Shown in pieces: positions 39,472-60,239 of a DNA stretch of 64,000 nucleotides. This DNA is from an uncultured Oscillospiraceae bacterium (lineage in GTDB: Bacteria > Bacillota > Clostridia > Oscillospirales > Oscillospiraceae). The stretch is from the NCBI GenBank assembly GCA_910588045.1, contig CAJUPS010000008.1, positions 4,012 to 68,011 on the forward strand, written 5' to 3'. Within the stretch, counting starts at the first letter, position 1, and the number at the start of each line of letters is the position of its first letter. The translations under genes were made by a program, and so were the position numbers. Below the pieces are notes generated by a model. It had not been told where the DNA came from. It was given only the letters and a program-made list of their open reading frames with translations, and did not search any database.

Positions 39472-39732
39472 GGTATTCCTTTATTCAATAGATTTGCGCG
39501 GATGCACGCTTCGGCTTATTATAAACGGTTTTCCGGAAAAAAGCAATCCCTTCGGGCAAAAATCGTGATACCGGCGGGTATTGACGTTTTTCTGCCGTTT
39601 GTGCTATGATGAACCCGGCAAGGATAAAAACACGTCCCGGTCGGTAGTCCGGGAGCGGCGGTATGCCGTCAGTAGCCTTCCTCCTTTGGTCGTCCGTTCC
39701 TTGCGGCAGCATATAAAAGGAGGAATCTGAGC

Positions 39733-56994: not shown

Positions 56995-58728
56995 TTATGC
57001 CTTGGCCGCAAGGGCGGCTTCCAGTTCGCCGTAGAAGACGGTCAGACGCTCGCCAAGGTCCATAACGATCATGTCGTCCTCGCCTTCGACGGTGACAACA
57101 AAATCAGTCAGGCCCTTGTACTCCACAAAGCTCTCCAGAACCTCGCGGAGAATCGCTACGGTCACAAGCTCGTCGGGGTCAAGGGGTTCGTCTTCGGTGT
57201 CGATGACCAGCGCCTCGTCAAGAGCCCAGTAGATCGCCTGTGCGTAGTCGTGGTCTGCCCACTGGAAGTCCTCGGGGAGCTCCACATCCTCGACGCCCTC
57301 GTACTGGCGCAGAGCCTCCAGCAGCTCGGCCGTGGAGATCAGGCCAGCCAGAGGGATTTCCTCGTCTTCGATGGTGGTAGCGTCGGCAGAAGCAGCAGCA
57401 AAGCCATCCACCATGGGAATGTCTTCATTCCCGGGAATAACAGGATCGTCTGGCTGCTCATTGTCCGTGGAAGGAACATAGAGAGAAAGCACCCTGTCAA
57501 AGTCCAGAGATGTTGTTCCCTCCGGCAGTTTTCCCGCGTGGATGGGATCTCCATTGTGGTCGTAAACGACATCCAAGTGGTTCCCCTCCGCGTCCGTAAT
57601 GGTGACGTTGCCCTCCTCGTCCACGGAGATGGTATAGCCGTTGCTGGTGTAACTGCCCATGCGTACCGCCATGACCGTGCCGGACTGTGCCTCATTTTCG
57701 GAGATCTCACCGCCGGACATCTGGAAGTTGCCGCCTTTGTTCTTGTCTTGATCTACCCCTATACCGCCTCCGCTGACGGACGATGTATTCTGGGTAATCT
57801 TGCCGCCAGTCATGTTGACTGTACCGTCAACCCGCACATATACACCGCCGCCACAGCTGTCCACATCTACCAGCTGGCCGCCGGACGGGCGTTTCCCCAC
57901 GGCTTTGTTGCCGCTGATCTCACCGTCACTCAAATTGAGGGTTCCATCTGATACAAAGACACCGCCGCCGTACTTGCCAGCCCGGTTGTCCGTGATCTCA
58001 CCACCGGTCATGTTAAAGGTAGCGCCTGTTGTCACACTTACACCGCCACCTACTGAACCACTCCAGTTATGTGTGATCTCTCCACCGGACATGTTGAAGG
58101 TCCCTCCGTAGTACACTCCAACACCGCCGCCTGTAGCGTTCTGCTGGTTGTCGCAGATGATCCCACCGGTCATATTGAAGGTAGCATTGTCCACATTTAC
58201 ACCCCTACCGACGTTTTGGGTGACCTTACCGCCGTTCAATGTGAACTCGCCGCCATTGTTTACAGCGATACCACCCGCGTTGGAACCGGTAATGATGCCC
58301 GTCTCTTCGCCGCGGGACTCAGCGCCTTCTTCCATTACTTTATCCATTATGGTCAAAGAGGTATCTTCACCGGTTACCTTAATAACAGGCCCGCTTTTTC
58401 CTCCTCGCCAGAAGATATAGCTGTCGTACCCTTCGTCGTAATTATCTTTAGTGGTCACCTTTTCGTTGAGTTGCAGCTTGTGGCCATTCAGGTCGATGTT
58501 GGCGTCTATGCCATCGCTGATAACGAGGGTCTTATCCAGGGTGAAGTCGCCGCTCAGGTAGTAGTCATACGCTTTGCTCTCGCTGCCCTCTACATCATAT
58601 CCGAGCAGTGCGCCAGTGTCGGTGTCGATGTAGTCCGTCGTAAGCTCCACCGCTGCAAACGCGGTGGTAGACAGCAGCGACAGCGCCATGATGAGGGCCA
58701 GGACCCGAGAAAAAATGTGCTTCTTCAT
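56995..58728 (-). CDS. Secreted repeat protein with a predicted parallel beta-helix (adhesin-like), signal peptide and acidic C-terminal domain
   Basis: Start reset to ATG 58728 (MKKHIFSRVLALIMALSLLSTTAFA, a signal peptide). Seven tandem repeats of about 25 aa of the type G-x-TFNM(T/S)GGEI(T/S)xN....GGGV.V. Confidence 0.75.
   Translation of the reverse strand: MKKHIFSRVLALIMALSLLSTTAFAAVELTTDYIDTDTGALLGYDVEGSESKAYDYYLSGDFTLDKTLVISDGIDANIDLNGHKLQLNEKVTTKDNYDEGYDSYIFWRGGKSGPVIKVTGEDTSLTIMDKVMEEGAESRGEETGIITGSNAGGIAVNNGGEFTLNGGKVTQNVGRGVNVDNATFNMTGGIICDNQQNATGGGVGVYYGGTFNMSGGEITHNWSGSVGGGVSVTTGATFNMTGGEITDNRAGKYGGGVFVSDGTLNLSDGEISGNKAVGKRPSGGQLVDVDSCGGGVYVRVDGTVNMTGGKITQNTSSVSGGGIGVDQDKNKGGNFQMSGGEISENEAQSGTVMAVRMGSYTSNGYTISVDEEGNVTITDAEGNHLDVVYDHNGDPIHAGKLPEGTTSLDFDRVLSLYVPSTDNEQPDDPVIPGNEDIPMVDGFAAASADATTIEDEEIPLAGLISTAELLEALRQYEGVEDVELPEDFQWADHDYAQAIYWALDEALVIDTEDEPLDPDELVTVAILREVLESFVEYKGLTDFVVTVEGEDDMIVMDLGERLTVFYGELEAALAAKA
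57688..58281 (-). repeat. Intragenic tandem repeats of about 75 bp encoding beta-helix coils
   Basis: The protein motifs FTLNGGKVTQN, FNMTGGIICDN, FNMSGGEITHN, FNMTGGEITDN, LNLSDGEISGN, VNMTGGKITQN and FQMSGGEISEN span residues about 150-347. Confidence 0.7.
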
Positions 58729-58756
58729 AGTTTCGTTTCCTTTCTTTGCATTATTC

Positions 58757-58937
58757 GGACGCAAAGGGAGTCCGGTAACCGAACGAGCATAGAGCCCGAG
58801 GGGCCCCACAGCCTCTGGTTTTGCGTCTTGCGGTTTCCCGCAATTTGCCGTGCAACCGGTCGAGCGTGGGGCGTTTGCCCCGACGCACCTGGCTTTGCGT
58901 CCCACTGTTTCCAATGGTTTGCCGATGGGATTTGCGT
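58757..58937 (-). ncRNA. Tandem c-di-GMP-I (GEMM-I)-like riboswitch aptamers in the 5' leader of the beta-helix protein gene
   Basis: Minus-strand aptamer 1 core is GGCAAACCATTGGAAACAGTGGGACGCAAAGCC (58923-58891), nearly identical to the Vc2 core GGCAAACCAUUCGAAAGAGUGGGACGCAAAGCC as I remember it. Aptamer 2 core is GGCAAATTGCGGGAAACCGCAAGACGCAAAACC (58849-58817). Both have a GNRA (GAAA) loop on the first helix and a second helix downstream. Confidence 0.65.
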
Positions 58938-59051
58938 AGGTAATTGATTTTGGGATGCATCCTCCTTCCATCAATTTATAGTCGAACTCCGTTTGGACAT
59001 ATACACCACCTGACCCGCCCCGAGGGTATGGCGGAAACAGGAGCATACACT

Positions 59052-59075
59052 TGTTGACAAAATTTTTATTTTGTC
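59052..59075. repeat. Left inverted repeat (IR-L) of the candidate invertible element
   Basis: TGTTGACAAAATTTTTATTTTGTC is the exact reverse complement of 59276-59299. Confidence 0.9.
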
Positions 59076-59124
59076 CTTTGGTTGCACGCTTTTAGGCAAC
59101 TAAGCCCCAAAGAAAAGCAAAAAA

Positions 59125-59190
59125 GGGCATGAAAAGTAAGGACTGCGCAAAATGCTTTTTCACAGTCCTTGGATTTTCATGTCCTTTTTT
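59125..59190. terminator. Bidirectional intrinsic terminator inside the invertible cassette
   Basis: Long imperfect hairpin GGGCATGAAAAGTAAGGACTG ... CAGTCCTTGGATTTTCATGTCC, with TTTTTT after it on the plus strand and TTTTTTGCTTTT after it on the minus strand. Confidence 0.6.
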
Positions 59191-59239
59191 CGTTAAACCG
59201 CTGATTTTGGGAAAACCGTCTTTCTTTTTTGGAAATCTA

Positions 59240-59248
59240 TGCTATAAT
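59240..59248 (+). promoter_or_regulatory. Extended -10 promoter element inside the invertible cassette, currently facing the recombinase gene
   Basis: TGCTATAAT (TGn + TATAAT). There is no good -35, as is common for extended -10 promoters. I saw no comparable -10 on the opposite strand of the cassette. Confidence 0.5.
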
Positions 59249-59275
59249 GAGGGAAAGCTAACTATGTAGAAATGC

Positions 59276-59299
59276 GACAAAATAAAAATTTTGTCAACA
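59276..59299. repeat. Right inverted repeat (IR-R) of the candidate invertible element
   Basis: GACAAAATAAAAATTTTGTCAACA is a 24/24 match to the reverse complement of IR-L. It lies 10 bp from the recombinase stop codon. Confidence 0.9.
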
Positions 59300-59308
59300 T
59301 GACGAAAG

Positions 59309-60133
59309 TCACGTGACCAGCCCCAACTTTTCCAGCTGCCGCGCATGTTCCGCACCGGAGGTCATCAGATAAATCCGGGTGGTGTTGATTGAACTATGGC
59401 CGAGAACGTCCGCCAACTTTACGATGTCCTTGCAGACTTTATAGAAGGTTGTGGCGAACAGGTGGCGGAGGTTATGGGGGAAGACTTTGCTTTCCTCCAC
59501 GCCTGCCTTTTTGCAGATGGCTTTCATTTCGCGCCAAATCTGGCCGCGCGAGATCGGCTTACCGCTTCCGGTGAGAAAAATCTCCCCGGAGGCGATTTTG
59601 TTTTTCTTGGCGTACTTGAGCAACTTCCGACGGAGCTTGTTGGGAAGTAAAATGCTGCGGATTTTGCCCTTGAGATTGATGTCCGTCGCCGTCCGGTTTG
59701 CAGCTTCAACAGTAATATAGCGGACCTCCGAAACGCGGATCCCCGTGGCGCAAATGGTCTCCATCAGGAGCTCCAATCGCTCCTGGCCCGTCTCACGGGC
59801 GGCGTCGAGTAAGCGCTGGTACTCCGCCTTGGTCAGCTCCTTGTTCTCCTCCCGGAACGCCTTCCTCTGCACTCGGAGAAACTTGATTTTGCAGTCTTCC
59901 CGACCCAGAAACCTGAGAAACCGATTGACAGCGGACAACATGGAGTTTATCGTCACTGGCGCATATCCCTGTTCCAGCAGGTACTCCCGCCAGCCGGATG
60001 CCTCCTCCAACTCCAGGTCATCCAGCCATGCCGCAAACGCCCGTACGTCCCGGCGGTACTTCTCCACAGTCCCTTTACTGCGCCCCTCGCTCTCCAAATA
60101 AGAGGTGAAGTTTAATATATCGTCTATACGCAT
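59309..60133 (-). CDS. Site-specific tyrosine recombinase (XerC/D-integrase family)
   Basis: 274 aa with an N-terminal SAM-like core-binding domain. Catalytic signature R (ATGIRVSE), HxxR (HNLRH) and H...Y (LGHSSINTTRIY). Confidence 0.9.
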   Translation of the reverse strand: MRIDDILNFTSYLESEGRSKGTVEKYRRDVRAFAAWLDDLELEEASGWREYLLEQGYAPVTINSMLSAVNRFLRFLGREDCKIKFLRVQRKAFREENKELTKAEYQRLLDAARETGQERLELLMETICATGIRVSEVRYITVEAANRTATDINLKGKIRSILLPNKLRRKLLKYAKKNKIASGEIFLTGSGKPISRGQIWREMKAICKKAGVEESKVFPHNLRHLFATTFYKVCKDIVKLADVLGHSSINTTRIYLMTSGAEHARQLEKLGLVT

Positions 60134-60142
60134 AAAATGAAT

Positions 60143-60182
60143 CCCCCTTTTGTGTTCCTTCTAAGTTTCACACAAAAGGGGG
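60143..60182 (-). promoter_or_regulatory. Perfect 13-bp hairpin immediately upstream of the recombinase ATG that sequesters its SD (terminator/attenuator-like)
   Basis: CCCCCTTTTGTGT / ACACAAAAGGGGG. On the minus strand the 3' arm ACACAAAAGGGGG carries the only purine-rich SD, 9 nt before ATG 60133. Confidence 0.5.
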
Positions 60183-60239
60183 AAAAGATGTATGAAATTG
60201 TGCAACGAATCAAAAATTTCTGCGCACCCAACTCTGTTC

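Follow-up and report, generated by a model that had tools for sequence, protein, structure and literature searches.

A predicted recombinase-flipped promoter switch in series with tandem c-di-GMP riboswitches in an uncultured member of the Oscillospiraceae

A 248-bp cassette (both flanking repeats included) in the genome of an uncultured member of the Oscillospiraceae is, in our assessment, highly likely to be a self-contained phase-variation switch, in which a promoter flipped by a recombinase stands in series with tandem c-di-GMP riboswitches. The cassette lies in a 64,000-nucleotide (nt) stretch of DNA, which was analyzed as a whole and is referred to here as the window. On its minus strand, the recombinase gene is followed by the switch, a 118-nt leader, two c-di-GMP-I aptamers, and a gene encoding a protein of 577 amino acids (aa) (Table 1). 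The anatomy of the cassette is conserved in a family of sibling elements, and natural inversion is observed among these siblings. Phase-variable surface proteins shape the encounters of gut bacteria with the immune system, phages, and mucus; to our knowledge, they are well mapped in Bacteroides and Clostridioides difficile and hardly in the Oscillospiraceae, which account for a large uncultured share of the gut flora.

Table 1. Features of the switch locus, with positions in the 64-kb window
Feature	Position	Strand	Basis or remark
Target gene, 577-aa secreted repeat protein	56995..58728	-	ORF; same gene called in L001
c-di-GMP-I aptamer 2	58771..58859	-	RF01051, 56.5 bits, E 2.2e-8
c-di-GMP-I aptamer 1	58848..58933	-	RF01051, 54.8 bits, E 1.9e-10
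Target-proximal inverted repeat	59052..59075		Exact repeat, copy search
Invertible interior (predicted), 200 bp, AT-rich	59076..59275		Stops in all six frames
Bidirectional intrinsic terminator (predicted)	59119..59190		Folding z-scores, RNAalifold
Extended -10 (TATG-c-TATAAT)	59238..59248	+	Sequence, sibling alignment (12/12)
Recombinase-proximal inverted repeat	59276..59299		Core GACAAAA-TTTTTA-TTTTGTC
Xer-like tyrosine recombinase, 274 aa, putative invertase	59309..60133	-	Pfam, NCBIfam, structure match
Anti-Shine-Dalgarno (anti-SD) hairpin, 3' arm = recombinase Shine-Dalgarno	60142..60183	-	Perfect 14-bp inverted repeat

An earlier, sequence-only reading of the locus had proposed perfect inverted repeats around a promoter/terminator segment, and the repeats are indeed exact: the target-proximal copy, TGTTGACAAAATTTTTATTTTGTC, equals the reverse complement of the recombinase-proximal copy throughout its length (24/24), and 200 nt separate the two. 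At up to 3 mismatches, this 24-mer occurs twice in the 64 kb, against an expectation of 0 (100 shuffles). In each repeat, an asymmetric 6-bp spacer separates two palindromic 7-bp arms, a 7-6-7 arrangement that is the layout of tyrosine-recombinase core sites. Among five elements, the spacers read TTTTTA, TGTTTA, TTTTCA, TATTCA, and TTTCTA; the spacer is always the same in both arms of one element and varies among elements, as is expected if strand exchange requires spacer homology. A general role of spacer variants in insulating paralogous cassettes is made less plausible by a metagenome-assembled genome (MAG), JAETNP01, whose three modules all carry TTTTTA.

The suggestion that further copies of the repeat might reveal a recombinase regulon gains no support from the window, which has no extra 24-mer copies (also under a relaxed core pattern) and a single recombinase gene, nor from its relatives, in which each inverton has its own adjoining recombinase. 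The repeat is likewise no generic dispersed sequence unrelated to inversion, since the 20-mer encountered elsewhere is the core of a dif-like site and hence also a recombination site in other Clostridia (discussed below). A full-text search of papers returned no occurrence of the repeat sequence. A separate palindrome, GTTGC(A/C)-N-G(T)GCAAC, is present inside the inverton near one end (59081-59101) and again just 5' of the recombinase anti-SD hairpin, including at the recombinase genes of contigs L056, L075, L081, and L083; it may be a protein-binding site.

The 200-bp interior is AT-rich and noncoding, as had been claimed: its GC content is 38.5%, versus 62% in the window, and stop codons break all six frames. 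The promoter element TGCTATAAT is present on the plus strand at 59240-59248 and, together with the two preceding bases (TA), reads TATGcTATAAT. The form TRTG-n-TATAAT is the Gram-positive "-16" extended -10. In all 12 aligned sibling invertons, the invariant motif T(A/G)TGnTATAA(T/C) holds the same position on the same strand while the flanking bases vary, and it occurs on only one strand of the segment, which is therefore predicted to carry a promoter directed at the regulated gene in just one of the two orientations. The arithmetic of inversion (x becomes 118351 - x) bears out the earlier placement of the flipped promoter, moving the -10 hexamer from 59243-59248 to 59103-59108 on the minus strand. 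No good -35 was seen for the extended -10. A two-hexamer promoter scan and a simple terminator scan returned nothing in the segment, results that are uninformative rather than negative because the scans call promoters only with a -35 and accept terminator stems only up to 20 pairs. Two further candidates were set aside: TTGACA within the repeat as a -35, whose nearest -10-like hexamer is 23 to 25 nt off, and a conserved ATG-TAG/TAA "start-stop" 3' of the promoter, which reads ATG-AAC in L081.

The long hairpin flanked by T-runs is also present (hairpin, 59125-59184; A-run, 59119-59124; T-run, 59185-59190). Its folding energy is -45 kcal/mol on the plus strand (z = -6.5) and -39 kcal/mol on the minus strand (z = -4.5), and such stable folds on both strands imply that it can terminate in both directions. 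An RNAalifold consensus of 10 elements places 27 pairs in the hairpin, 9 of them with compensatory double changes; Rfam matches to microRNA and SpF43 sRNA families lie far below gathering scores and are spurious. The 12 invertons have in common both the order and the orientation of the core sites, a TACATA block, the extended -10, a AAAATCAGCG block, and the hairpin with its T-run.

The recombinase ORF is real, and its stop codon lies 9 bp from the proximal repeat. The protein matches the Pfam family Phage_integrase (2.4e-25), plus SAM_1; its top NCBIfam matches are XerA, XerD, and XerC, all under their equivalog cutoffs (158 bits versus 220 for XerA and 131 versus 330 for XerD). On the models of FimB/FimE-type invertases (NF007370 and NF007371), it scores 32 and 27 bits against cutoffs of about 221, and we regard it as a putative enzyme that works like a FimB/FimE-type invertase from outside that subfamily. 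Its nearest solved structure is Pyrococcus abyssi XerA (4a8e; E 4e-23), and the full catalytic set is in place (R133, K157, H220, R223, H246, and Y255). The anti-SD hairpin is kept, with compensatory changes, 5' of all seven paralogous recombinase genes (7/7) and probably throttles translation of the recombinase.

Sibling elements were collected in a genome scan with the 20-bp core GACAAAATTTTTATTTTGTC (one genome per species), which returned 46 loci in two classes. In class A, two inverted copies of the core lie 200 to 430 bp apart, directly 3' of a recombinase that is 64 to 75% identical to that of the window, and one Oscillospiraceae MAG contains three such modules (L025, L032, and L039). 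More class A loci came from a metagenome scan and from contigs encoding close homologues of the recombinase. Throughout the elements compared, the inverton is located 9 to 16 bp after the recombinase gene. As to individual siblings, the recombinase stop codon of L050 and L055 is set apart from the proximal repeat by 96 inserted bp that contain a GC-rich hairpin (GGTAGGGCGCG...CGCGCCCTAC), an insertion absent from L053 and L054. In modules from rabbit-gut MAGs with a longer, 407-bp inverton, group II intron domains are matched just 5' of the recombinase gene (L033:4864-4945 and L048:3355-3436).

Five sibling elements, whose recombinases are 66 to 89% identical to that of the window, are found in both orientations within the same flanks in public, independent assemblies, the flipped interiors having 96 to 100% identity to the reverse complement. 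A metagenome element (L055 versus L049) matches the reverse complement of its counterpart at 198 of 198 interior positions, with flanks matching 60/60; for the P0009 element (L056 versus L057), the figures are 193/201 against the reverse complement, versus 113/201 in the same orientation, with flanks at 58 to 60 of 60, and for the P0098 element (L066 versus L071), 196/200 with flanks at 58 to 60 of 60. The P0008 (L075 versus L076) and P0014 (L078 versus L079 and L080) elements likewise differ by inversion. P0009 stands close to the window, with a recombinase 89% identical to the window's, the same leader, and an interior of 83% identity. The arms of P0014 differ in their outer halves (TGTTGACAAAAT and TGTGGACGAAAT) and in their inner halves (ATTTTGTCgcaa and ATTTTGCCtatt); upon inversion, the flanks keep the outer half-arms, whereas the inner half-arms move with the interior, which places strand exchange within the central ~14 bp. 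Since the P0014 arms share only 14 identical bp, the repeat is too short for misassembly at usual k-mer sizes, and the flipped contigs derive from different samples and assemblers.

Across the ~200-bp family, 31 contigs have the promoter directed toward the recombinase, as in the window, and 6 have it directed toward the target (n = 37; the tally includes L049, L050, and L055). The window's own element is represented by three contigs (the window, L001, and L002, of which the window and L001 possibly come from one assembly), all with the promoter toward the recombinase; look-ups with the target protein returned no flipped copy, the contigs retrieved all breaking in the leader or the gene. With this one state in all three contigs, we infer inversion of the window's copy from its intact parts and from its siblings. 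Among the matches listed, all 10 P0009 contigs (10/10) end 10 to 436 bp past the recombinase stop codon, and nearly every contig with a P0008, P0009, or P0010 recombinase ends in this range (L056-L065, L077, L084, and L085). Breaks at the inverton are what mixed orientations or paralogous repeats would be expected to cause in assemblies. In L083 (3838-4070), the inverton hairpin leads by its 3' arm directly into the 3' portion of aptamer 2, and what would lie between (distal repeat, leader, and the greater part of both aptamers) is absent, a structure representing either a switch-locking deletion or a misassembly. Overall, the adjoining complete recombinase, the conserved -10 and terminator, and the five siblings found in both orientations support the earlier interpretation of the locus as a fimS-type invertible promoter.

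The riboswitch that the sequence-only reading had placed in the leader is real and of the c-di-GMP-I class, but it comprises two aptamers in tandem rather than one, both above the RF01051 gathering score of 35 bits. Aptamer 1, which shares 12 nt with aptamer 2, is masked in whole-window and standard scans because these retain only the better of two overlapping matches. With two aptamers in the leader, the promoter and the riboswitches would act in series. Downstream of aptamer 2, no clear terminator was found, and a possible hairpin may pair part of the Shine-Dalgarno sequence. The leader also contains a conserved TATAAA(T/A) downstream of the switch, which could be a weak, orientation-independent promoter. 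A longer ORF (56995-59046) that runs in frame through both aptamers is a GC-rich artifact, the real start of the target gene being at 58728. The target protein carries a signal peptide (MKKHIFSRVLALIMALSLLSTTAFA) and contains 27-aa repeats of the beta-helix/PMP type. It has no Pfam match of its own; its relatives contain Beta_helix, NosD, Chlam_PMP, Flg_new, and SLH domains, which mark the target as a beta-helix repeat protein that is secreted or located at the surface. At the DNA level, 81-bp tandem-like repeats (27 aa) occur within the gene at 58001-58185, and several assemblies break inside it (L089-L091).

The window's locus is part of a large family of paralogous cassettes located 5' of beta-helix, LRR, MucBP/SLH, and CLIPPER/SLH proteins, and metagenome assembly ERZ17913132, from run SRR10593860, contains the window's module on contig _240 together with two others on separate contigs. 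In four sibling modules, c-di-GMP-I aptamers also lie 5' of large surface proteins (a 797-aa LRR protein, a 551-aa protein, a MucBP/SLH protein, and a 1,946-aa CLIPPER/SLH protein). Many modules encode first, directly after the distal site, a small Cys-rich protein of 160 to 176 aa, a candidate phase-variable regulator that precedes the riboswitch and a large SLH protein. The N terminus of this small protein carries a CxCxCG...CGC motif (L020, L025, L032, L039, L051, L053-L055, L066-L074, and L078-L080); its C-terminal part looks AP2-like by eye, an identity that we rejected given a Pfam AP2 match of only E = 1.3. Elsewhere in the window, an azaaromatic (yjdF) riboswitch aptamer is located at 39614-39713 on the plus strand (78 bits).

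Under the mechanism that we propose, the Xer-like recombinase would synapse the two inverted 7-6-7 sites and exchange strands inside the 6-bp spacer, flipping a segment that would carry a single promoter of the sigma-A extended -10 type together with a single terminator working in both directions. As assembled, this promoter would be aimed at the 3' end of the recombinase gene, and the terminator would halt read-through from that gene, leaving the target silent; based on this promoter direction, the assembled state is predicted to be OFF, and the predicted-OFF orientation is the one most common in the family. Once the segment is flipped, the terminator would lie upstream, and the promoter would read through 59075-59052 into the leader (the predicted flipped junction on the recombinase side being GTCA-TGTTGACAAAATTTTTATTTTGTC-CTTTGGTTGC). 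The two c-di-GMP aptamers would then decide whether the secreted beta-helix protein is made, and target expression would depend on a stochastic DNA state and, at the same time, on a second-messenger signal. The OFF-state promoter would meanwhile direct an antisense RNA across the recombinase gene, which, along with the anti-SD hairpin, suggests a feedback stabilizing the common state.

This last feature could also be given first place, with the switch chiefly controlling its recombinase: antisense RNA would damp recombinase synthesis and lock the common state, and the effect on the target would be secondary. Of 37 contigs, 31 have the promoter directed toward the recombinase, the -10 of this promoter lies ~75 nt from the recombinase stop codon in every element with no intervening terminator, and the conserved anti-SD hairpin suggests that recombinase expression is tightly limited; the fimE gene of Escherichia coli is likewise under orientation-dependent control. 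However, the 31:6 bias could arise equally from selection against expression of the surface protein, and control of the recombinase would complement the promoter-riboswitch series rather than replace it, such that we consider it a real, if somewhat unlikely, possibility as the chief function. We think it very unlikely that the cassette is a relic, be it a MITE-like element or a fossil switch fixed in one orientation. Perfect terminal inverted repeats around a short, AT-rich noncoding segment would suit a relic, the window's element is known in one orientation only (three contigs), and L083, lacking the distal repeat and leader, indicates that locked derivatives may exist. Against this, there is no target-site duplication (flanks ...GTCA and AGTG...) and no further copy in the window, the element always keeps its short distance (9 to 16 bp) past the recombinase gene, repeats matching 24/24 and an intact recombinase argue for current use, and sibling copies invert in place while their flanks stay unchanged.

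A link to chromosome dimer resolution emerges from the second class of loci (class B: L004, L008-L015, L017-L019, L022-L024, L026-L029, L031, L034, L035, L037, L038, L040, L042-L044, L046, and L047). These loci hold, at one copy per genome, a perfect 28-bp 11-6-11 palindrome (ATTAGACAAAA-TTTTTA-TTTTGTCTAAT) that is present in ~30 species of Clostridia ranging from 26 to 54% in GC content. Its central 20 bp are identical to the core of the inverton repeats, and in 15 of 30 loci it is situated ~20 bp upstream of a gene for a 330-aa XerC-like protein. GC skew (4 kb on each side) falls across the palindrome in 21 of 22 loci (Wilcoxon p = 5e-6), with a change of sign from plus to minus in 16 loci and the reverse in none. 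Such a drop is the signature of a replication terminus, and the palindrome is thus very probably dif, that is, an undescribed dif site for a single-Xer system. It is unlike the Bacillus subtilis-type dif that has been used for predictions in the Firmicutes (PMC3025954).

The identity of the cores, the position of the palindrome at the skew switch and directly 5' of XerC-like genes, and the top family matches of the recombinase (XerA, XerD, and XerC) would all be compatible with repeats that are dif-like sites for the host Xer, serving dimer resolution or the integration of mobile elements, next to a gene that is a housekeeping Xer paralogue. We nevertheless regard this as extremely improbable for the window: the repeats are two inverted copies 200 bp apart and not a single site, the GC skew shows no switch of sign at 59 kb (cumulative skew falls steadily over 56-62 kb), the recombinase is under all Xer equivalog cutoffs, and three modules exist in one genome (L025, L032, and L039). 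Furthermore, the inverton recombinase and the dif-adjacent Xer are only 25 to 27% identical, though their core sites share 20 bp. On the origin of the invertible promoter switch, we offer a conjecture that we ourselves hold to be rather unlikely, namely, that the inverton sites are domesticated dif, and that an Xer dimer-resolution module was duplicated and rewired into multicopy recombinase-plus-switch cassettes that gate surface proteins in series with c-di-GMP riboswitches, with antisense feedback on the recombinase and partial insulation of paralogous cassettes by spacer variants.

Whatever its history, the switch is compact and fully specified, consisting of one 274-aa recombinase and one 248-bp cassette with promoter and insulator, and its predicted logic is legible from sequence. 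The cassette might find use as a genetic memory part in GC-rich Clostridia, and its connection with a dif-like site offers a clue to the origin of such switches.

Invertible promoters operated by tyrosine recombinases are classical and include fimS, the switches of Bacteroides, and the RecV switches of C. difficile. The cassette resembles E. coli fimS (acted on by FimB and FimE) in being a short invertible segment within inverted repeats (248 bp, compared to 314 bp for fimS), in its predicted promoter for an adjoining surface-structure gene, in having its tyrosine recombinase encoded alongside, and in the possible control of the recombinase by the orientation of the switch. It differs in that fimS has 9-bp repeats, two recombinases, and IHF/Lrp sites, whereas here the 24-bp repeats are full 7-6-7 core sites and are combined with one recombinase, a putative built-in bidirectional terminator, and downstream riboswitches. 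In the RecV switches (cwpV, the flgB "flagellar switch," and the cmrRST "cmr switch"), clostridial tyrosine-recombinase inversion similarly controls surface or motility genes, and at flgB and cmrRST, a c-di-GMP riboswitch is contained in the same 5' region as the switch. The cmr switch has a promoter in its ON orientation, and the cmrRST riboswitch, which has its own promoter, is located upstream of the switch, with c-di-GMP acting independently of orientation (PMC8844915). By contrast, the invertible promoter predicted here lies upstream of tandem class I aptamers, placing the two controls in series, and a dedicated recombinase adjoins each switch, whereas one distant recombinase serves many switches in C. 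difficile.

Also similar by description is inverton group 139 (with invertase group 35) of the hCom2 community, which consists of ~250-bp invertons with 14- to 26-bp repeats, nearly all from the class Clostridia (including the Oscillospiraceae member Intestinimonas) and nearly all with an adjacent tyrosine recombinase, and for which read-level inversion dependent on surface attachment was demonstrated (PMC11892184). The window's family resembles this group in size, clostridial host, and adjacent recombinase, a comparison made from descriptions; the main text of that study mentions neither riboswitches nor c-di-GMP. Single-recombinase Xer/dif systems (XerH/difH, XerS/difSL, and archaeal XerA/dif, with archaeal XerA as the nearest solved structure) share with the locus an Xer-like fold, palindromic arms around a 6-bp spacer, and a site that adjoins the recombinase gene; unlike the inverton, they employ single-copy terminus sites that resolve dimers, whereas here two inverted copies would drive inversion. 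The locus, then, belongs to a known type of switch, and its less ordinary aspects are the predicted serial wiring of promoter and riboswitches and the dif-like core of its sites.
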